IMG/VR virus record: IMGVR_UViG_3300025871_000007
Source of the DNA: an uncultured virus (IMG/VR IMGVR_UViG_3300025871_000007)
Taxonomy: Duplodnaviria > Heunggongvirae > Uroviricota > Caudoviricetes
Strand: one strand, 5' to 3'
Length of the DNA stretch: 20,000 nucleotides
Each line of letters begins with the position of its first letter. Within the stretch, counting starts at the first letter, position 1. The translations under genes and the position numbers were made by a program. The notes under the pieces are model-generated. The model did no database searches, was not told where the DNA came from, and worked only from the letters and a program-made list of their open reading frames with translations. Below, in pieces: positions 407 to 19,408 of this stretch.

Positions 407-1021
407 ATGAATTCTAATGTAGAAACATTATATGTAGAATATACGCAAGAAAAAAATACTTTTAAGAAAGAAAGAATTCTAGGTAAAATATTTAAATGTT
501 ATGAACCTTTATCTAATAAACTTTCTTATAAATATTCCAGGATTTTCCCATCATATGAAGCAGAGGATTGGAAAATCTTGGTAAATCTAGGAATATGGGA
601 AGGAGTTAATAAAACTCCTACTAAAGAATTAGTTAGAAAATATATCTACTTTAGAATAAAGCATCAAATTGCAAAAGAAATACAACTTATAACAGCTAGA
701 AAGCAAACTTATTTTCATGAGGTAGAATTAGATTCTGTTATTATTTGTCCAGAAAATTCTGAAGAAACTCGTAAGATTACTAAATTAGATATAGAAGCTG
801 CTATAAATAAATTACCAGATAAAACAAAACAGATTATTAAATTATGGATGGATGATGTTCCAGTATGTCCTGATTCAGCCAAATCATCTTTAATGCAAGC
901 ATCAATATGTGATGAAGTTAATCTTTCTTTTCCAGCAGTTTACTTTAGATTAGAAAGAGCATTTGAATTGTTGTATTGTTATCTATCAGATTATAAGGAA
1001 AGTATTTATGAGGAATGGTAG
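407..1021 (+). CDS. Divergent sigma70/ECF-like factor
   Basis: RBS GGAGG upstream; region-2-like helix (EAEDWKILVNLGIWEG..YIYFRIK) and region-4-like C-terminus (IEAAINKLPDKTKQIIKLW...ICDEVNLSFPAVYFRLERA). Confidence 0.65.
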   Translation: MNSNVETLYVEYTQEKNTFKKERILGKIFKCYEPLSNKLSYKYSRIFPSYEAEDWKILVNLGIWEGVNKTPTKELVRKYIYFRIKHQIAKEIQLITARKQTYFHEVELDSVIICPENSEETRKITKLDIEAAINKLPDKTKQIIKLWMDDVPVCPDSAKSSLMQASICDEVNLSFPAVYFRLERAFELLYCYLSDYKESIYEEW

Positions 1022-1220
1022 AAATATTTGTATCTATATGTCTGATTATAACCTTTATTGTTCTTTAGATAAAGAGGTTAGAGAACTATATTATAAAAAA
1101 TATGGTCAAGCTCTTTCCAAAAGCGAAGTGATTAATAAAGGATTAGCAGTTTTAAAAGATACATTAACTAAATCAGAAAATCTTTCTGAGCTACCCAAAT
1201 ATAGCAGGATATTCAAGTGA
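1008..1220 (+). CDS. Small putative ribbon-helix-helix-type DNA-binding protein
   Basis: ATG at 1008 follows AAGGA (995-999), a better start than 963; beta-strand (RNICIYM) then helices ending SKSEVINKGL; GTGA overlap with the helicase start. Confidence 0.5.
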   Translation: MRNGRNICIYMSDYNLYCSLDKEVRELYYKKYGQALSKSEVINKGLAVLKDTLTKSENLSELPKYSRIFK

Positions 1221-3670
1221 TAATTTCAGATAAAATATATATTCCATTATGTAAGTTAGGTGCTAAAGCAAATGATTTAGCTAAGATTTTTACCTATCAA
1301 AATCCAGAATATTTTGAAAAATCTAAAATGGGTTTTAGCACCACAAAATGCAGTCCTTTTCTTGCACATTATGCTTTTCAAGAATCCGAAACAAAGGAAA
1401 AATGCATAGTAGTACCTAGAGGTGCTATTAAGAAAGTTAAAACTTTTCTAGAAAAGAATAATATATCCTTACGCCACTTAGATAACAGAAATGAAGGTAA
1501 AGATATAGATATCGAGTTAACAGACACAAGATTAGAACCCCAGCAGTTAGAAATCATAGAGCTTTTAAAAGCTAATGAGGGTGGATTGATAGAAATGCTA
1601 CCGGGCGGTGGGAAGACAATTGCTGCTTTGGGTTTTATCTCAAAAGTAAAAAAATCTACTCTTATTCTAGTACATGAACATAGACTTAGAACACAATGGG
1701 AAGAAGAAATTAAAAGAAGACTTCAAGGAGATTTTACTCTAGGAAGATTAGATGGTGACGAGAAACGGGAAGGTGATATAACAATCGGAATTATTAATTC
1801 CGTTTATCTGATGTATAAAGAAAATAAAGATATCTTTTCAAAATATGGTGTAGTTATAGTCGATGAATGCTTTCCTTGGTATTCTAAAGTATTAACTAAT
1901 TCTGGATATAAAAATATTAAAGATGTACAAAAAGGAGATATTGTTCTAACTACGAATGAGACTACTAAAGAATTAGAATGGAAATCTGTAGTTAACAATA
2001 TACAAAAAAAATCAAGAAAAAATCTTATAAGTATAAAACTTAATAATGGTAAAAGTATTGTTTGTACAGAAGATCATAACATATATACTACTAAAGGATG
2101 GATATCAGCTAAAAATCTTGTATTAAATGATGAACTTATTACTGTGGATACTATTATTTATGGAAGAACTATCGAGAAGAAAAAAGAAAAACAAAGTGAT
2201 TGCAATTATTCCCTGTTACATTTGTGGAAAAGATGTGGAAATATTATCTGGAACTCAAACAAAGGAAACTTACAGACTGACAGGAAGAGCATATTGTTCA
2301 AGGGAATGTTCAAAAGCTTATGTCAGAAAAACGAGCAGCGAGACAATGACAAGAACAAATTTGAAATATCGAGATATTATTGTCAAAAGAATGTTGGAAA
2401 ACAATCCTTCAAAGGATCCAGAGATAGCAAAAAAAGCTGTACAAAAAAATCGAGAAAATGGTACTTACGATTTAAATTGTTTCGAACATTGCGGAAATGG
2501 GCGGGCATGTTCAAAAGAACATCAATCTTTATTAGATTCTCTGAATTTCATACAAGATATTTGGATAAAAGAATGTCCAGTTCCTACCAAAATGGGAAGA
2601 ACTTCAGGATATCCAACTTGTTACAAATTGGATATTGGTTGCAAAGAATTAAAAATTGGAATAGAAGTAGATGGGGATACTCATTTAAACAAACAACAGA
2701 TACAATTAGACAAAAAGAAGGATATATTCTTACAAGGATTGGGGTGGAAAGTATTACGCTTTACTCACTCGCAGATTCACGAAAACTTGACATCTTGCGT
2801 GGCGAAGATTATGTCTATGATCTTACAATAGAAGATAATCATAACTATTTTGTGGAAAATATATTAGTACATAATTGCCATCATACACCAGCAAAAATGT
2901 TTGAATTAGTAGTAAATAATATACCTGCTAAATATAGAATAGGTTTAACAGGTACTGTTAAAAGAAAAGATCAAAAAGAAATATTAATGTTCGATATTTT
3001 AGGCCCTGTTCTTATTTCTATAGGAGCAGAGGACTTGAAACATCGTGTTACTTCTTTTACCTATGAAATAGTAGAGACTAATTGTAAAATAGATGCACCT
3101 ACAAGAAAACTATGGGCTGATGGTGCAAGAGTAACAAAAGTAGATTATGTTTCTCTTTTAAGCCTACTGGTTAAAAATCAGCAAAGAAATACTATAATTT
3201 TAGAAAAAATTATAGAATCCATAAAAGAAGGATATAAGCCTTTAATATTATCAGATAGAGTAGATCATTGTAAATATCTTTATCAATATTTATTAGATTT
3301 AGGATATAATGTTGTATTATTAATAGGAGCTACACGCAAGCAATCTAATTGGGAAGAAATCAGACAAGATAATAGCATACAAGCTATTGTAGCACAGCGA
3401 AGCATCGCTGAAGAAGGTCTAGATTACCCTTCTCTATCCGCACTGCATTTAACCTGTCCATCTACTAATTTACCAAAACTAAAACAAAGAATAGGACGTA
3501 TTAGACGTGTAGCAGAAGATAAGATATTACTACCTAAAGTATACGATTATGCAGATAATGCAGTACAATTAAAAGATCAATTTGGAAAGCTTCAGTTTCC
3601 ATTAAAGAGATCGGCAAGATCTCGTGAAAGTTTTTATAAAAAGTTACAAGAGGAATATGAAAGTGCTTAA
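1217..3670 (+). CDS. Superfamily 2 (DExH, UvsW/XPB-like) helicase precursor containing an intein
   Basis: Walker A PGGGKT; Walker B VIVDE|CH split by the intein; motif III GLTGT; motif V EEGLDYP; motif VI QRIGRIRR. Spliced product 481 aa. Confidence 0.92.
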   Translation: MIISDKIYIPLCKLGAKANDLAKIFTYQNPEYFEKSKMGFSTTKCSPFLAHYAFQESETKEKCIVVPRGAIKKVKTFLEKNNISLRHLDNRNEGKDIDIELTDTRLEPQQLEIIELLKANEGGLIEMLPGGGKTIAALGFISKVKKSTLILVHEHRLRTQWEEEIKRRLQGDFTLGRLDGDEKREGDITIGIINSVYLMYKENKDIFSKYGVVIVDECFPWYSKVLTNSGYKNIKDVQKGDIVLTTNETTKELEWKSVVNNIQKKSRKNLISIKLNNGKSIVCTEDHNIYTTKGWISAKNLVLNDELITVDTIIYGRTIEKKKEKQSDCNYSLLHLWKRCGNIIWNSNKGNLQTDRKSILFKGMFKSLCQKNEQRDNDKNKFEISRYYCQKNVGKQSFKGSRDSKKSCTKKSRKWYLRFKLFRTLRKWAGMFKRTSIFIRFSEFHTRYLDKRMSSSYQNGKNFRISNLLQIGYWLQRIKNWNRSRWGYSFKQTTDTIRQKEGYILTRIGVESITLYSLADSRKLDILRGEDYVYDLTIEDNHNYFVENILVHNCHHTPAKMFELVVNNIPAKYRIGLTGTVKRKDQKEILMFDILGPVLISIGAEDLKHRVTSFTYEIVETNCKIDAPTRKLWADGARVTKVDYVSLLSLLVKNQQRNTIILEKIIESIKEGYKPLILSDRVDHCKYLYQYLLDLGYNVVLLIGATRKQSNWEEIRQDNSIQAIVAQRSIAEEGLDYPSLSALHLTCPSTNLPKLKQRIGRIRRVAEDKILLPKVYDYADNAVQLKDQFGKLQFPLKRSARSRESFYKKLQEEYESA
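1868..2875 (+). mobile_element. Intein (336 aa) inserted in the helicase DECH motif
   Basis: Starts CFPWYSKVLT (block A); block B CTEDHNIYT; block F YVYDLTIEDNHNYF; ends LVHN followed by Cys+1. Removal restores VIVDE-CHH. Confidence 0.93.
2127..2831 (+). CDS. Zn-finger + DUF559/Vsr-like PD-(D/E)xK endonuclease nested in the +1 frame inside the intein (start may be ATG 2160)
   Basis: CYICGK...YCSREC Zn motif; NUMOD-like NPSKDPEIAKK; catalytic-type YKLDIG..KIGIEVDGDTH..QLDKKKDIFLQGLGWKVLRF. Confidence 0.85.
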   Translation: MMNLLLWILLFMEELSRRKKKNKVIAIIPCYICGKDVEILSGTQTKETYRLTGRAYCSRECSKAYVRKTSSETMTRTNLKYRDIIVKRMLENNPSKDPEIAKKAVQKNRENGTYDLNCFEHCGNGRACSKEHQSLLDSLNFIQDIWIKECPVPTKMGRTSGYPTCYKLDIGCKELKIGIEVDGDTHLNKQQIQLDKKKDIFLQGLGWKVLRFTHSQIHENLTSCVAKIMSMILQ

Positions 3671-3712: not shown

Positions 3713-4483
3713 ATGGATACGCAAGAACAACAAATTTCTCTCAATGAGAAATCATTAGATAAAAATGCAAAAGTAAGTAGAAATTTTGAAAATAGAACAG
3801 AATTGGAAACACAAGAGTTATATGATACAATAAAAGAAGCAGTATTGTGTGCTCAAGATCCTCAAAACGATGATTCTGATAAAGCACTGGCCTTTATTGT
3901 ATTTGTATTTGATCCTCTTATCAGAAAGATAGCAGGAAAGATCTACTTTTATATCAAAGATTGTGAAGAATATGAGGATATTCTTCAAGAAACTTACGCT
4001 ACCTTTATACGATTAGTATATGGGTATAATCCTTCCATTTCCGCCTTCCCTTATTACATTAGAAATATGTTACCAAGACAAGTTAAAGCATGGAGTCAAA
4101 GAACAAAAAGAAAATCTTACATTCCAGTAGATACTGTTATAGTTGATAATGCAATAGCAGATCCTTTTATGAATAGTAAGGATAGTGTTTATGAGAGATA
4201 TAATAGCTATGTAATGCAAGAAGAATATAAAGAATTTATTATGCAAAGAGCAGAAAGAAAAACAAAGAGTAATACAGTAAAAGAAGTTTGCTATAATTAC
4301 TTTTTGGGATCTTCCTCGTGTACTCAACTTGCAAAAAAATTAGGAATTTCATACCACGCAGTCTACGAAATTATACAAAGAATTAAACTGGAACTTCAAG
4401 TATTTTTAGAAGAAAATACTCTTACAGAACTTGAAGCTAGCAGTATGTTTCAGGATGAGACAAAAATAGATATAGAAAAATGA
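3713..4483 (+). CDS. Sigma70-family (phage) sigma factor
   Basis: Region 2: FDPLIRKIA..YEDILQETYATFIRLVYGYNPS..FPYYIRNML; region 4 HTH: TQLAKKLGISYHAVYEII. Confidence 0.8.
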   Translation: MDTQEQQISLNEKSLDKNAKVSRNFENRTELETQELYDTIKEAVLCAQDPQNDDSDKALAFIVFVFDPLIRKIAGKIYFYIKDCEEYEDILQETYATFIRLVYGYNPSISAFPYYIRNMLPRQVKAWSQRTKRKSYIPVDTVIVDNAIADPFMNSKDSVYERYNSYVMQEEYKEFIMQRAERKTKSNTVKEVCYNYFLGSSSCTQLAKKLGISYHAVYEIIQRIKLELQVFLEENTLTELEASSMFQDETKIDIEK

Positions 4484-4674: not shown

Positions 4675-6663
4675 ATGTCAGATTTATTAACTAGCAGATT
4701 ATTAGATCCCTCGTATTCTCCTTCAACTACTACTCTACCCACGTTTTTAACTCCTAGTAAAAAAGAATGCCCAGTACGTTTTACTACAGATATTGTCGAA
4801 TTCTGTGAGCACGAAGAATTTTTGGGTACTAAGCTAAGACCACTACAAAAAAACTTTCTTGTCGATTTATATTCATTAGACGATTCCGGATATCCAAAAT
4901 ACGATACAGGTGTTTTTATAGCAGGTATGCGTGGTGGTAAATCTGCTTTAGCAGCATTTATAGCTGCATTTCAAGTGCACAGATTACTATCTATGAAGGA
5001 ACCAGCATTAGAGCTGCATCAGATTAAAGGGCAACGTCTTACTATACAATTTATTGCTAACTCCGAAGCACAAGCGAAAGAAACGGCGTATGCTACCTTT
5101 GAAACACTTATTACAGATTCATTTTGGTATCAAAAGTATATAGGATGGTTAAAAGAGAGAGAAAGAGAAGAACATCTTCCTGTAAATTCATTATTTGAAC
5201 ATAAAGCACAAAGTATAGAATTTTATGAAAAGAATGTTGCTATTTTATCGCTAAATTCTAACTCCGCAACTGCAGTAGGTAAAACTTCAGCATGCTGTAT
5301 ATTTGATGAGCTTTCTCGTTTTGATGTAGCGGAGAATGATATACAAGCTAAATCACAAAAGCGTGTTGCACAAGCTATTTATGACGGTGTAGCTAAAGCA
5401 GCAACATCTCTAATGCCTTTTTCTAAGGTTGTTACTATTACATCTCCTATGTATGAAGATGATTATGGCATGAGATTATTATATCAATCTGGTACATTTA
5501 AAGGCGGAGAACAAAGTGGTATTATTCATACTCTAAGAAGGCAATACCCTGATAAAGCAGAAAGAATGCTAGGATATCATTATACTACTTTTGAAATGAA
5601 TCCTCTAAAGGATGCAAATGGCAATATTATACCAGGTGGATTTAGCCCAGAACAAAGCTTTTTCAAGAGTAAAAGAAATGAGAGTCCAGAAGGTTTTAGA
5701 AGAGACTTTCTTGCTATACCACCCTCAGCAGTAAGTCCTTTCTTTGAATATCCTGAAAGAATAGAATCCTGTATTGTCAAGAATTCACAAGCAGTAATTT
5801 TCTTTGATAGGGAATTTCAAGAATCTGTAGACAGAGATGGATTACCACTAAGTGTTAGACATTATATAGGTAAATCTTTGGAAATAGTTAAGCCCAATAA
5901 AATGAAAGATTACTATATATCATGTGACCAGGGTGAAAAGAAAGATGCGTTTGTTGTAGCAATGGCACACGGAGAAACTATAGCTTATAGAACAGTAAAT
6001 ACAGAAGGAAAAGAAATAGAATATACTAGATATAAAGTTATAATAGATTTTATTGAATGTTGGGTTCCAGATCGAGAAAAACGTGTAACAGTATACTTTC
6101 CTAATGTAGAAGAAATCATATTTAAACTCCACCAAAATTTTAATATTAAGAAAGTAGTATTTGACCAGTGGAATAGTACAGAATCTATTCAAAGATTATT
6201 TAGTAAAGGAATAATGACAGAAAAAACTAATCCTTCTGAAAATCTAAAGAAATATGAGATTCTTAAGACATTATTTTATAATGGTCTTATAGAAATGCCT
6301 CAAAACGATAGGCTACTTAAAGAATTACGACAACTTAATTTGATACGTGGTCAGAAAGTTGATCACAGTTCTTCGGGAAGTTCGGATGCCTCCGATGCTC
6401 TAGCTAGAGTCGTATTCGAAGTATATATAAATGTATTGCAACAAGCGGTGCAAGGTAATGTTATTACTAATCCTATGCAGGTAGGCTTGCCCACATTAAG
6501 GGGCATTGCAGGGATGCAAGAATATATGAAGTCTCCTATGATAGCACCTACTGCTGGTTTACCTATTAATAGAACGCCAGGTAGTATAGGAGTAAGCAGT
6601 GTTTTTAGTAAAGGAACTAAAGCCCCAGAACAAAATGTCTTCCCAAATTTTCTACTTAAATAA
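4675..6663 (+). CDS. terL: Terminase large subunit
   Basis: Adenine-binding LRPLQ, Walker A GMRGGKS, Walker B CIFDE, coupling motif ITSP, RNase H-like nuclease acidic residues (YISCDQG, VVFDQWNS, DHSSSGSSDASDALA). Confidence 0.9.
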   Translation: MSDLLTSRLLDPSYSPSTTTLPTFLTPSKKECPVRFTTDIVEFCEHEEFLGTKLRPLQKNFLVDLYSLDDSGYPKYDTGVFIAGMRGGKSALAAFIAAFQVHRLLSMKEPALELHQIKGQRLTIQFIANSEAQAKETAYATFETLITDSFWYQKYIGWLKEREREEHLPVNSLFEHKAQSIEFYEKNVAILSLNSNSATAVGKTSACCIFDELSRFDVAENDIQAKSQKRVAQAIYDGVAKAATSLMPFSKVVTITSPMYEDDYGMRLLYQSGTFKGGEQSGIIHTLRRQYPDKAERMLGYHYTTFEMNPLKDANGNIIPGGFSPEQSFFKSKRNESPEGFRRDFLAIPPSAVSPFFEYPERIESCIVKNSQAVIFFDREFQESVDRDGLPLSVRHYIGKSLEIVKPNKMKDYYISCDQGEKKDAFVVAMAHGETIAYRTVNTEGKEIEYTRYKVIIDFIECWVPDREKRVTVYFPNVEEIIFKLHQNFNIKKVVFDQWNSTESIQRLFSKGIMTEKTNPSENLKKYEILKTLFYNGLIEMPQNDRLLKELRQLNLIRGQKVDHSSSGSSDASDALARVVFEVYINVLQQAVQGNVITNPMQVGLPTLRGIAGMQEYMKSPMIAPTAGLPINRTPGSIGVSSVFSKGTKAPEQNVFPNFLLK

Positions 6664-6677
6664 AGGAGATTAAGAAA

Positions 6678-7649
6678 ATGAGCGTTTCCAAACAACGATT
6701 ACAGGAAATAATGGAATTTTGCTTAGAACAAGGAGAAGAAAAAACTAGAGAATCTTTTAATATTACAGTATCTACATTGGAAAAGTATAAAAGATTATAT
6801 AAAGAACAGGTAAGTGATGATATAAATAAAAAGATTTATCTTGGACAGATTTTTGAAAGATTTAGCGAAGCAGAACTTAAATCTATAGCAGAAGGATCAA
6901 GGATTATACCAGGTGAACATTCATCTCCAAAATTAAATTTTGATGGTGAGAAAGTAACATTTGGTGCGATGGGTGATACACATATTGGAAGTGTCTATTT
7001 CAAAGAAGAATTACTAGAACAAGCAATAGAGGAATGTGATAAGCAAAATTGTCAGTTTATTTGTCATACAGGCGATCTAACAGACGGAATGTCTAGAAGA
7101 CCAGGTCATGTATACGAACTCAAGGATATAGGATATCAAAGGCAGAAAGAAAGAGCTGTACGATGCTTTTCACAATGGAGAAAACACTGGTACTTCATAG
7201 ATGGCAATCATGACCGTTGGTATGTCGAAAATAATAATTCTGGTGCAATTATAGCAAAAGATATTTGTAATGAATTAAATCACTTTGAACAAGGAGCCAC
7301 TTTTCTAGGGCATGATGAAGGAATTATTACACTAGGTGATATTAAGATTATGTTATGGCATGGAATAGATTCTTCTAGCTATGCTACTTCTTATCGACTG
7401 CAAAAACTAGTTGAAGCTTTTTCTGGCGGTGAGAAACCTAATGTTTTATTGGCAGGGCATGTACATAAACAAGGATACTTTTTTGAAAGAAATATTCATT
7501 GTATTAGTACTGGAGCAATATGTTTACAAAGCAGATGGATGCGAGGAAAGAGGCTGGCAAATCACAGCGGATTTTGGATCATTACGATGTGGATGAATGA
7601 AAAAGGAGTAAGTAAATTTCAACCAACTTGGTATCCATTTTACATGTAA
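6678..7649 (+). CDS. Calcineurin-like metallophosphoesterase with N-terminal helical/HTH-like extension
   Basis: All five motifs: GDTHIG, GDLTDG, GNHD, WHG, GHVH; RBS AAGGAG. Confidence 0.9.
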   Translation: MSVSKQRLQEIMEFCLEQGEEKTRESFNITVSTLEKYKRLYKEQVSDDINKKIYLGQIFERFSEAELKSIAEGSRIIPGEHSSPKLNFDGEKVTFGAMGDTHIGSVYFKEELLEQAIEECDKQNCQFICHTGDLTDGMSRRPGHVYELKDIGYQRQKERAVRCFSQWRKHWYFIDGNHDRWYVENNNSGAIIAKDICNELNHFEQGATFLGHDEGIITLGDIKIMLWHGIDSSSYATSYRLQKLVEAFSGGEKPNVLLAGHVHKQGYFFERNIHCISTGAICLQSRWMRGKRLANHSGFWIITMWMNEKGVSKFQPTWYPFYM

Positions 7650-13297: not shown

Positions 13298-13996
13298 TTA
13301 AAGATAATTAGAACAAAAATATTTTATTAATTTTTTGGTATGTCTATCAAATGCCAAAGGAATTATTTTATATGTATCATAATATTTTAGATAATGCAAT
13401 CCCCAAGTCATATATATTAGATCATAATTGCTTAACCTTACCAAGTTAAGATCTATATGATCTATAAAAACAGCATGCAAATTGTTTTTATCACAATAGC
13501 ATCTAAGTTTTTTAATATAGCTTTTGGAAAAGCTATTACCTATTTGTATATAAATTCTATATATGTTACTTAAATCTTTAAATTGTTTTAATTGTCTTAA
13601 AATAGCTTTTTTTGGATCTAAACCTCCACCATATAAATATACTTTTATAGGTTTAAAAGAAGATTTTGTATAACATCTAATTCCTAATCTTTCTTTCCAA
13701 TGCGGTATATATACTCTAATTTCTCTATTAAATAGTCTAGCACCTAAACCAAAATCATCTATAAATATCAGATGATGTGTTTTTCTATATAACTTATAAG
13801 CTAGAAGGAATGAACATTTCTTTACATCTATATATACTACGTCACCTTGTTTAATCTTAATAGAAGAAATATTATTTTTTGCTATTGCTTTAAAAGAAGG
13901 GTATTTGGCAATGTGATCTAACGCTCTTTTATAATGTCCTGTACCATACCTTTTGCATACAGGAGCATATATATAATATGCATTAAATATTTTCAT
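13298..13996 (-). CDS. Truncated/divergent GT-B fold protein, PseG/SpsG-like
   Basis: GTGHYKRAL, VYID, IFIDD, YGGGLDP, IQIG motifs in the order seen in PseG/SpsG; shorter than typical. Confidence 0.55.
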   Translation of the reverse strand: MKIFNAYYIYAPVCKRYGTGHYKRALDHIAKYPSFKAIAKNNISSIKIKQGDVVYIDVKKCSFLLAYKLYRKTHHLIFIDDFGLGARLFNREIRVYIPHWKERLGIRCYTKSSFKPIKVYLYGGGLDPKKAILRQLKQFKDLSNIYRIYIQIGNSFSKSYIKKLRCYCDKNNLHAVFIDHIDLNLVRLSNYDLIYMTWGLHYLKYYDTYKIIPLAFDRHTKKLIKYFCSNYL

Positions 13997-14625
13997 GCTG
14001 CTATATCCTTTCCTTCTAATTTATAAGTTTTAACTAAATACTTTCTTAAATGTTCAAGTATTCTAACTCTATTTTTTTCTATATAACTAATAGAGATACC
14101 AAGCTTTTGAGAAACTTGAGGATAAGATAATCCTTCTACATGATACGAAAGAATTAATTGTTTATCCTTTTCTGATAGAGTATTTAAAGCAGAATCCAGC
14201 ATTCTCATATCTTCTTCTTTCATGAAATTTTCTTCTAAATCATTTTTAGAATGCTTATCTACATATTCTAGAAAACCAACTATATTACTTTCTATACTTT
14301 CTGTAGAATAAATATGTTCTCCTTCTTCGTTCTTAGATCGAGAAAGAGTACCTTCTTTTCTTAATCCATCTATTATCGCACCAGATAGCCTTTTAGAAGC
14401 ATAAGTGCTAAAAGTATACCCTAATGTAGGATTATATTGTTCTACAGCATGAATTAATCCTATATAAGAATGCGATAGAATAACACTGGGATCTGCAGTA
14501 AAGAACTTTCTTGACATAATCTCTGCAGTCTTTTTTGCTAATTGAATATTATCTACTATCAATTCATTACGAAGATCTATATCTTTTGATTTATAATAAG
14601 CAAACCACTTATCATTTATTGTCAT
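13993..14625 (-). CDS. FliA/WhiG (sigma-28)-like sigma factor
   Basis: LRNELIVDNIQLAKK, IGLIHAVEQYNPTLGYTFSTYASKRLSGAIIDGLR, region 4 LSEKDKQLI..EGLSYPQVSQKLGIS; start at 14625 fits GAGGA RBS better than 14682. Confidence 0.88.
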   Translation of the reverse strand: MTINDKWFAYYKSKDIDLRNELIVDNIQLAKKTAEIMSRKFFTADPSVILSHSYIGLIHAVEQYNPTLGYTFSTYASKRLSGAIIDGLRKEGTLSRSKNEEGEHIYSTESIESNIVGFLEYVDKHSKNDLEENFMKEEDMRMLDSALNTLSEKDKQLILSYHVEGLSYPQVSQKLGISISYIEKNRVRILEHLRKYLVKTYKLEGKDIAA

Positions 14626-14761
14626 CATAATCCTCAAAAAGATTATATTGGATATTAAATTCAACATCATTTTTGGACCCACAAGACGGACAAGTGGAAT
14701 CTTTTATTTTTGAATTCCAACATCTTTCACATTTATTACATCTATAAATATATTCTTCCAT
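14612..14761 (-). CDS. 49-aa zinc-ribbon protein (not in ORF track)
   Basis: MEEYIYRCNKCERCWNSKIKDSTCPSCGSKNDVEFNIQYNLFEDYDDNK; two CxxC pairs. Confidence 0.7.
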   Translation of the reverse strand: MEEYIYRCNKCERCWNSKIKDSTCPSCGSKNDVEFNIQYNLFEDYDDNK

Positions 14762-18148: not shown

Positions 18149-18162
18149 ATTTTATCTTTATG

Positions 18163-18235
18163 CTCTGGTGACTGGGTTCGAACCAGTGACCATTCGGTTA
18201 ACAGCCGAAGGCTCTTCCAACTGAGCTACACCAGA
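18163..18235 (-). tRNA. tRNA-Asn(GTT)
   Basis: Cloverleaf: TCTGGTG/CACCAGA acceptor, G73, D arm GCTC/GAGC, anticodon arm TTCGG-CTGTTAA-CCGAA, T arm with TTCGAAC; CCA not encoded. Confidence 0.95.
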
Positions 18236-19310: not shown

Positions 19311-19333
19311 GATATCTCCTTTAAAAAAGAATG

Positions 19334-19408
19334 TGGAGACGTGAGGTCTCGAACCTCAGTCCATGCTAGACTGTAGTCTAGCCGCTCTCCCTGTTGAGCT
19401 ACGCCCCC
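19334..19408 (-). tRNA. Atypical tRNA/tRNA-like gene: Ala-type acceptor stem, 8-nt anticodon loop, anticodon undetermined
   Basis: GGGGGCG/CGTCTCC-A acceptor, D arm GCTC/GAGC, GCTAG-ACTACAGT-CTAGC, T arm TGAGG-TTCGAGA-CCTCA. Confidence 0.75.

Follow-up and report, generated by a model that had tools for sequence, protein, structure and literature searches.

The stretch analysed here (the window) comprises 20,000 nucleotides (nt) of DNA from an uncultured virus, corresponding to bases 19775-39774 of the 39.8-kb viral record IMGVR_UViG_3300025871_000007 in IMG/VR. It contains an open reading frame (ORF) of 817 amino acids (aa) that encodes a superfamily 2 (SF2, DExH) helicase interrupted by a class-1 intein and, in the +1 frame of the DNA encoding the middle of this intein, a second ORF that encodes a zinc-ribbon protein with a predicted Vsr-like nuclease domain. 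We refer to the frame of the helicase and the intein as frame 0. A sister record (G001; 236,368 bp), which has direct terminal repeats and is rated as 100% complete by CheckV, contains the same region at 100% identity, thus the element sits in a large AT-rich phage of ~236 kb with a GC content of ~30%. The features of the locus are as follows.

1217-3670, plus strand: helicase precursor ORF, 817 aa, consisting of N-extein, intein and C-extein in one open frame without an internal stop
1217-1867, plus strand: N-extein, whose last residues VIVDE are the first half of helicase motif II (DExH)
1868-2875, plus strand: class-1 intein, 336 aa, between VIVDE and CHH in the DE/CHH box (the slash marks the insertion point)
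1868-2164, plus strand: N-terminal splicing domain of the intein, aa 1 to ~99, predicted beta-rich HINT fold
2124-2126, plus strand: TAA stop of the +1 frame directly before the first nuclease ATG
2127-2831, plus strand: nuclease ORF in the +1 frame, 234 aa with the longest possible N-terminus (zinc ribbon, helical region, predicted Vsr-like/EDxHD nuclease domain), with its TAG stop at 2829-2831
2127-2198, plus strand: candidate nuclease starts ATG 2127, ATG 2130, ATG 2160 and GTG 2196
2168-2719, plus strand: intein-frame linker, aa 101-284, a stop-free basic spacer, predicted to be disordered, that is read through the nuclease gene
2214-2309, plus strand: zinc-ribbon ligands C30, C33, C57 and C61 of the nuclease
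2559-2828, plus strand: predicted catalytic domain of the nuclease, aa ~145-234, with E180, D182, H186, D195 and K198
2720-2875, plus strand: C-terminal splicing domain of the intein, aa 285-336, with blocks F and G
2739-2831, plus strand: doubly constrained overlap, with the nuclease C-terminus (GLGWKVLRF...) in the +1 frame and intein strands (GVESITLY...YVYDLT) in frame 0
2876-3670, plus strand: C-extein, which opens with CHH, the second half of motif II, and bears the Helicase_C domain

The ORF at 1217-3670 matches the Pfam families ResIII (E-value 7e-21), DEAD and Helicase_C (E-value 8e-9), as well as the DNA helicase family phrog_16 (E-value 2e-44). The ResIII/DEAD and Helicase_C matches flank a match to Intein_splicing (PF14890) over residues 225-553 of the ORF, which covers positions 2-155 of the 155-position model (69.4 bits, the cut-off being 35.8; E-value 4e-19). 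The intein starts with C1, carries the block B residues T67-E-D-H70, and ends with H335-N336 followed by Cys+1; C1, H70 and N336 are invariant in an alignment of 60 sequences. Our own hidden Markov models (HMMs) of the N- and C-terminal splicing domains (intN and intC) matched positions 1868-2167 (E-value 6e-38) and 2741-2875 (E-value 9e-22), respectively. Both halves are confidently predicted to form a beta-rich HINT fold: in the AlphaFold2 model of the frame-0 intein (60 sequences), residues 1-90, with strands E7-E96, have a pLDDT score (predicted local distance difference test) of 94-98, and residues 285-336, with strands E285-299 and E315-335, one of 81-98. Between intein aa 100 and 284, Pfam found no domain in frame 0, and no secondary structure was predicted for the linker of ~180 residues (pLDDT 42-56), which contains 46 K+R and 13 D+E among its 184 residues and has a net charge of +33. 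An initial annotation, made from the letters alone, had described an intein frame that is open from end to end and whose middle is devoid of an endonuclease domain, and our results bear out both points: over 1868-2875, there are no stops in the 336 codons of the intein frame, 34 stops in the third frame, and 7 stops in the +1 frame before 2127.

The endonuclease is encoded in the +1 frame instead. Searching both frames with HMMs, as the initial annotation had suggested, placed PF14890 in the intein frame and DUF559 (PF04480) in the +1 frame, the latter over nuclease aa 166-231 (41.6 bits against a cut-off of 20.6, E-value 1.2e-10). The AlphaFold2 model of the nuclease (61 sequences; pLDDT 93.2) shows a small beta zinc ribbon, helices and a C-terminal alpha/beta domain. 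When this model was compared with the Protein Data Bank (PDB) by Foldseek, the highest-ranking match was 3r3p_B, the catalytic domain of I-Bth0305I (probability 1.00, template modelling score (TMt) 0.62, E-value 5e-3); further matches were the Vsr structures 1vsr (rank 3) and 1cw0, and the DUF559 protein 3hrl (TMt 0.78). None of these Foldseek matches reached an E-value of 0.001 or below, since only the C-terminal third of the model aligns. A phmmer search of the nuclease against the PDB returned 3hrl alone, while a profile of the family reached both 3hrl (E-value 1e-11) and 3r3p (E-value 0.002). The catalytic domain is thus predicted to have a Vsr-like fold of the EDxHD/DUF559 type. Among 61 aligned sequences, the zinc ligands C30, C33 and C57 are present in all and C61 in 59, and the five residues listed for the catalytic domain are kept in 58-61, with E180 found in all 61 and D182, H186 and D195 each in 60; all four of the latter are present in the window nuclease. 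E180, D182, H186 and D195 would correspond to the published EDxHD motif, to which we mapped them from the description of the motif. These results agree with the initial reading of the +1 frame as a zinc-finger protein with a DUF559/Vsr-like nuclease domain, as does the location of its TAG stop within intein block F (YVYDLTIED). For the region between these two parts, labelled "NUMOD-like" in the initial annotation, we obtained no Pfam or NUMOD match (residues 62-140). The N-terminal part, with helices at aa 59-110, has a weak profile match to the MYM-type zinc finger 2das (E-value 0.004) and a Pfam match to zf-FLZ at an E-value of 0.12. In three further loci (L003-L005), the match is confined to nuclease residues 87-132 at 44%, and their DNA has no similarity to the window.

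Two other observations can be added. A second, short DUF559-like fragment occurs in the sister record (entry 170355-170477 (+) / 130803-131153 (-); 41 profile positions, E-value 3e-6, 68-aa open frame). In addition, the heptamer A_AAA_AAG at 2180-2186 lies in phase with the nuclease frame, and a -1 slip at this site would lead from the nuclease frame to the intein frame. We considered a programmed -1 slip at this heptamer as a route of expression and rejected it, since it has the wrong phase and cannot bring ribosomes from the intein into the nuclease.

An uninterrupted frame 0 through a 234-codon gene in DNA with a GC content of 30% is not expected by chance; within this span, the third frame is interrupted by 18 stops. 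When the codons of the +1 ORF were permuted among synonymous positions, 14.2 +/- 2.4 stops appeared in the intein frame, and when they were redrawn from the phage's own codon usage, 24.8 +/- 3.4 stops appeared; a stop-free intein frame was found in 0 of 20000 sequences in either case. The avoidance is visible at the codon junctions at which a stop could arise in frame 0. In the window, none of the 75 nuclease codons that precede a codon starting with AA, AG or GA has T at its third base, versus 64 of 158 elsewhere, and C-ending codons, which the initial annotation had noticed at such junctions, account for 15 of 75 versus 11 of 158 elsewhere. The same holds for the 69 unique overprinted copies described below, which have no stops in the intein frame, compared with a permutation median of 11.3 (range 2.5-18.4 per copy), and which have T at 0 of 4608 risky third positions versus 3060 of 11847 elsewhere; as loci were classed by contiguity, what is informative here are the expected stop counts and the few exceptions in the census. 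Chance is therefore excluded as the cause of the open intein frame. Nuclease codons that end in T are removed by selection in front of AA, AG and GA codons, since any stop in frame 0 would abolish the helicase.

To see how widely this arrangement occurs, we collected relatives of the nuclease from three sources. An exhaustive HMMER search returned 2562 relatives at an E-value of at most 1e-3; of the best 150, almost all are proteins of 150-310 aa that stand alone. When the +1 protein was compared by tblastn with 50,697 GenBank phage records, 40 records were obtained at an E-value of at most 1e-3, from 37 Vibrio phages, 2 Corynebacterium phages and 1 Pseudomonas phage, and each match lies under a single annotated helicase or hypothetical coding sequence (CDS). 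We inspected eight of these loci, from six Vibrio phages, Corynebacterium phage phi673 and Pseudomonas phage MR14, and in 8/8 the nuclease has a +1 offset relative to a CDS that is free of internal stops. A profile scan of IMG/VR gave 341 confirmed relatives, of which the best 80 were analysed. Our census thus covers 89 loci: besides the window, it includes 80 loci from IMG/VR, two of them from the same phage as the window, and the 8 from GenBank. It was conducted by applying our intN, intC and nuclease HMMs to stop-to-stop ORFs. A contiguous intein with the nuclease in the +1 frame was found in 80 of the 89 loci, 79 of them classed by the HMMs and one (L046) by eye. Five more are cut by a contig end with the +1 relation still visible, three carry a free-standing nuclease without intein flanks, and one (L069) has several frame breaks. 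Thus, the expectation that both frames would be open in related inteins holds for most loci of this set.

The 79 overprinted loci classed by the HMMs represent 69 unique DNAs with a GC content of 0.30-0.66 and inteins of 270-409 aa, and the intein frame is stop-free in all 69. The splicing residues are highly conserved: the intein follows xDE in 68/69, C1 and a C-terminal (H/S)N are present in 69/69, Cys+1 in 68/69, and the C-extein starts with CHH in 51/69. The distance from the nuclease stop to the end of the intein takes discrete values among the 69 loci, most often 8 nt (20 loci), 44 nt (17), 23 nt (12), 50 nt (10) and 11 nt (5), and the nuclease ORF overlaps the C-terminal splicing domain by ~90 nt in the window and by 34-127 nt in the relatives. 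These discrete distances indicate that in some lineages nearly the entire C-terminal splicing domain, as much as 127 nt, is double-coded.

Two further arrangements occur among the relatives. In L038 (3450-5587) and L042 (3355-5623), a free-standing nuclease gene lies directly upstream of a DEAH helicase gene and overlaps its start by ~30 nt; in L038, the helicase frame breaks exactly at the DE/HH box, with IIIDE... in one frame and ...HHAAAP in the next. In P0055, a protein of 496 aa with ResIII, the N-terminal splicing domain (IntN) and DUF559, and in L069 (2853-5113), the N-extein, IntN and nuclease share one frame and the intein's C-terminal part is in another ORF; the first CxxC of the L069 nuclease is in a third frame, and this locus looks degraded or mis-assembled.

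We next asked whether the +1 offset could be an artefact, that is, whether the nuclease is in truth an in-frame domain of the intein that was displaced by two compensating indels introduced during sequencing or assembly. Two other assemblies (L001 and L002) are 99.97% and 100% identical to the window over 5828 nt. Contigs assembled from 4 runs of 4 studies show no indels over 1800-2900 and a single substitution (C>T at 2428, in one run), and the contig of one run spans the whole stretch. Moreover, every sampled word of 1800-2900 is present in 7 runs from 5 studies of anaerobic digester, activated sludge, biofilm and wastewater habitats, sampled in 2016-2022, although several of these runs are possibly the source sample. 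The same +1 relation recurs in 80 of the 89 related loci, at 33-50% protein identity, and without translation of frame 0 there would be no stop-avoidance signature. We found nothing in favour of the artefact and consider its probability practically negligible, in agreement with the initial annotation, which had argued that a single sequencing frameshift could not account for two intact frames and had named an in-frame nuclease in homologues together with compensating indels as the outcome that would speak against its reading; instead, the homologues have the nuclease in the +1 frame, and the four runs are free of indels.

In a canonical intein, the endonuclease domain is in frame with the splicing domains, while here it is in the +1 frame. 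In a fractured or naturally split intein, a stop follows the N-intein and the C-intein has its own start after a non-coding gap, while here there are no stops in the 336 intein codons, and likewise in 80 of the 89 relatives. The arrangement is thus that of an overprinted intein, in which the intein frame is open through an endonuclease ORF in another frame of the same DNA.

The initial annotation had further claimed that both frames are under selection and that about 700 nt are dual-coding. We evaluated this by the Nei-Gojobori method on 10 pairs of family members, in which L009 was used twice, computing the ratio of the proportions of nonsynonymous and synonymous differences (pN/pS) in each frame. 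For the overlap, this ratio is 0.34 when read in the nuclease frame and 1.30 when read in the intein frame, while in the upstream and downstream flanks the intein frame has values of 0.33 and 0.26, respectively. When the overlap is divided, the linker and the part under the intein C-terminal domain behave differently: pN/pS in the nuclease frame is 0.32 in the linker and 0.49 under the C-terminal domain, and in the intein frame it is 1.47 in the linker and 0.64 under the C-terminal domain; divergence per site is 0.187 and 0.081, and pS in the nuclease frame is 0.399 and 0.135, respectively. Column entropy over the 69 unique DNAs is 1.20, 1.10 and 1.60 bits at the first, second and third nuclease codon positions. 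This split in pN/pS and divergence indicates that ~570 nt of the overlap encode one protein plus a stop-free spacer. Amino-acid constraint in both frames is observed only over ~90 nt (2739-2831), in addition to a short segment on the 5' side where the nuclease ORF overlaps the N-terminal splicing domain's end. In the ~90-nt segment, the C-terminal helices of the nuclease lie over the C-terminal strands of the intein; GLGWKVLRF (+1 frame) overprints GVESI (frame 0) there, and the aligned relatives keep this pairing. Accordingly, the length of ~700 nt was overstated, and the claim of selection on both frames stands in the sense that both are kept open, whereas selection on amino acids in the linker acts on the nuclease frame only (0.32 vs 1.47).

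These values bear directly on an alternative in which the frame-0 linker is a functional basic domain, for example, one binding nucleic acids, such that the whole 700 nt encode two functional proteins. The strongly basic composition of the linker (net charge +33 over 184 residues) fits this idea, and a few positions are near-invariant in the alignment of the intein frame (L143, L252, Q253 and R266). However, these positions appear to coincide with the most conserved nuclease motifs of the other frame, the intein-frame pN/pS in the linker is 1.47, no secondary structure is predicted in the 60-sequence alignment model, and the length of the linker varies along with that of the inteins (270-409 aa). 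Therefore, we consider a functional linker very improbable.

The reading that we regard as highly probable is that the element is a contiguous class-1 helicase intein whose middle is an out-of-frame read-through of a complete homing endonuclease gene in the +1 frame. According to this reading, ribosomes would translate the helicase through the nuclease gene in frame 0, producing a precursor with a basic, disordered spacer. The intein would then excise itself by cis-splicing and restore the DECHH motif, as its intact splicing residues and the essential-looking host gene suggest. The nuclease would be made separately by internal initiation in the +1 frame, for which ATG 2160 is our best guess in the window. 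A start codon with a Shine-Dalgarno (SD) core is found before the first CxxC in 38 of 69 loci, where ~13 would be expected by chance, and the free-standing relatives L038 and L042 start a few residues before the same CxxC. The nuclease would cleave intein-free helicase alleles at or near the DEAHH-coding site, as can be anticipated by analogy to I-Bth0305I and from the sporadic distribution of the element in Vibrio phages, and repair would copy the intein together with the nuclease gene into the cut allele, which amounts to homing.

Expression of the nuclease could alternatively involve a programmed +1 frameshift or transcriptional slippage, by which a fusion of N-extein, IntN and nuclease would be produced beside the full-length precursor. 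Candidate starts in the window are without an SD core, an A-rich run is present at the junction (2177-2194), and IntN and the nuclease share a single frame in P0055 and L069. Nevertheless, the TAA of the +1 frame at 2124, directly before the first ATG, leaves only ~85 nt for such a shift, the heptamer at 2180-2186 is in the phase of the nuclease so that a slip leads out of the nuclease frame, and L069, with its several frame breaks, looks degraded or mis-assembled. No family-wide slippery site was seen, although no search aimed at one was made. As an SD core and a start are also present in 38/69 relatives, and the free-standing relatives begin at the same place, a frameshift fusion seems decidedly unlikely.

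It is also conceivable that the +1 ORF is an inactive relic in this phage, the intein being now inherited vertically with only a stop-free frame 0 under selection. In accordance with this, position 214 is H in the window nuclease, where 60 of 61 relatives have N, three other conserved positions are changed, there is no SD core in the window, and the known copies are near-identical, by which purifying selection in this lineage is not measurable. Against it, the ORF is intact over 234 codons at 30% GC, while 18 stops interrupt the third frame; of the 38 positions conserved to at least 85%, the nuclease retains 34, among them all zinc ligands and the E, D, H, D and K residues; the model of the nuclease is confident throughout (pLDDT 93.2); and the family as a whole has a pN/pS of 0.34. 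We thus judge a relic unlikely.

Several points weigh against our preferred reading of a read-through intein with a separately expressed homing endonuclease. No SD core is present at -17 to -4 of any of the four candidate nuclease starts in the window. Contigs from an RNA library (X15) cover 1992-2212 and 2729-2879, but they could be derived from DNA and are no proof of transcription or of a start site. The H at position 214, together with the three further conserved positions that differ, means that activity of the window copy is not assured. Because the copies of the element in this phage are near-identical, selection was measured on the family and not on its own lineage, and the 10 pairs used for this purpose are not fully independent, L009 being in two of them. 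In the overlap, the nuclease-frame pS is 0.35, compared with 0.50-0.56 in the flanks; this lower value may reflect recent transfer or extra constraint. Finally, the intN and intC HMMs were built from family members, and the proportion of 80/89 describes the clade of the query rather than the 2562-protein family.

Alleles of the same site in cultured phages are in line with a mobile element. In a group of 60-kb Vibrio phages, K391 and 1.194.O carry the full element. Vibrio phage K459 (L095, 301-2382) has a 149-aa mini-intein at the same DE/CHH site, in which the other two frames are full of stops and there is no nuclease ORF, and the intein-free allele of Vibrio phage 1.023.O (L096, 301-1935) reads DEAHH, with Ala where the intein-bearing alleles have Cys+1. 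Divergence between K391 (L009) and 1.194.O (L010) is 5.1% upstream of the overlap, 1.5% in the overlap and 17.7% in the C-extein, a mosaic that fits a recent exchange of either the intein region or the downstream half. As for its origin, the element likely arose when a free-standing, helicase-targeting endonuclease gene entered a mini-intein. The family supports the view of intein evolution in which the splicing domain comes first and the endonuclease invades later, and the cultured Vibrio phages with full, mini and empty alleles provide an experimental system for homing.

The gene neighbourhood in the window is phage-like. Two ORFs match families of phage RNA polymerase sigma factors, at 3713-4483 (+) and 13993-14682 (-) (phrog_1740 and phrog_351), while the ORF at 407-1021 (+) has no PHROG match and is sigma-like only as an impression from its translation. 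A large terminase subunit is encoded at 4675-6663 and an exonuclease at 6678-7649. Both GC skew and gene orientation switch sign near 7.7-8.1 kb of the window. ARAGORN predicted a tRNA-Asn (GTT) and a second tRNA-like gene with a two-base "anticodon", to which ARAGORN assigned no identity, at 18162-18235 (-) and 19333-19408 (-).

The general design, an intein frame open through a separately framed endonuclease gene, is already in print. The available text of a preprint on non-canonical inteins of actinobacteriophages (Gosselin, Arsenault & Gogarten, bioRxiv 10.1101/2025.01.02.630785) describes antisense LAGLIDADG, antisense VSR-like and sense frame-3 endonuclease VII-like genes, and, as in our case, contiguous open inteins with a separate overlapping endonuclease ORF and an in-frame middle without a fold. 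Its authors propose an origin by invasion of a free-standing endonuclease gene and point out that annotation pipelines miss such elements. The hosts described there are DNA polymerase, minor capsid, terminase and thymidylate synthase genes, whereas here a sense +1 Vsr-like gene lies in a DExH helicase; the overlap of ~90 nt with the C-terminal splicing domain is a further feature to set against these forms. A cyanobacterial dnaX intein (Phillips, DeSimone & Gogarten, bioRxiv 10.64898/2026.09.14.751524) is likewise described, in the text available, as having its splicing and endonuclease functions in separate overlapping frames and a disordered spacer when read in the intein frame. Selection on it is frame-dependent, being purifying in the endonuclease frame, with dN/dS raised in the extein frame. 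It differs in having a LAGLIDADG endonuclease in a +2 ORF, a host gene on a bacterial chromosome and a cyanobacterial distribution, and its authors call the arrangement a rarity, while it is the rule for our query clade (80/89 loci). Gorbalenya 1998 is among the references of both preprints. An HNH endonuclease hidden out of frame has also been described in the ShiLan insertion in a phage methylase, which in the parts of that article available is not identified as an intein (PMC11855218), unlike the Vsr-like nuclease in the helicase intein of the window. In the literature searched, which did not extend to the supplementary tables of the preprints, we did not find the sense +1 Vsr-like form in a contiguous DExH-helicase intein.

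Our results add a third arrangement of Vsr-like endonucleases with inteins, after the split ("fractured") and antisense ones. The second gene is missed by automatic annotation, since a single helicase or hypothetical CDS is placed over the region in 8/8 inspected GenBank loci, and an intein of this kind can be taken for a mini-intein or a decaying one. The family also shows that a frame can be kept open by selection through more than 200 codons of another gene, even at 30% GC, and it contrasts true double coding with a mere stop-free spacer. With respect to the nuclease itself, the closest structural parallel, I-Bth0305I (2011, PMC3239194; PDB 3R3P), is described in the accessible part of its report as bipartite, with an N-terminal DNA-binding part and, at the C-terminus, a Vsr-like catalytic domain in which E, D, H and D are conserved. 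It is encoded by a recA group I intron and contains two NUMOD-2 motifs, while the predicted nuclease of the window has a CxxC...CxxxC zinc ribbon and lies inside an intein; identity in the aligned fold is only ~15%.

Also close in organization are the fractured genes (Dassa et al. 2009, PMC2677866), which, according to the portions of that paper available, are split inteins whose halves are separated by a free-standing gene for a Vsr-like or GIY-YIG endonuclease. They have in common with our element the Vsr-like family, hosts in phage DNA metabolism, location on the same strand, and overlap of the endonuclease 3' end with the C-intein coding region, which there amounts to 6-69 bp. In those genes, however, the N-intein has a stop, followed by a non-coding gap of 27-51 nt and the C-intein's own start, and the halves trans-splice, whereas in the window frame 0 is stop-free and contiguous and would splice in cis. 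We tentatively suggest, as a possibility that we hold to be rather doubtful for now, that the overprinted helicase intein is the contiguous counterpart of the fractured genes: a free-standing, helicase-targeting Vsr-like gene would have entered a mini-intein, its 3' end would have become fused over the C-terminal splicing strands, and the double-coded segment of ~90-130 nt would since have tied the nuclease to the intein, such that gain or loss of one stop in the spacer would interconvert the cis-splicing overprinted and the trans-splicing fractured forms. If this is true, the way in which intein-endonuclease partnerships originate could be tested directly in the cultured Vibrio phages, with their full, mini and empty alleles.

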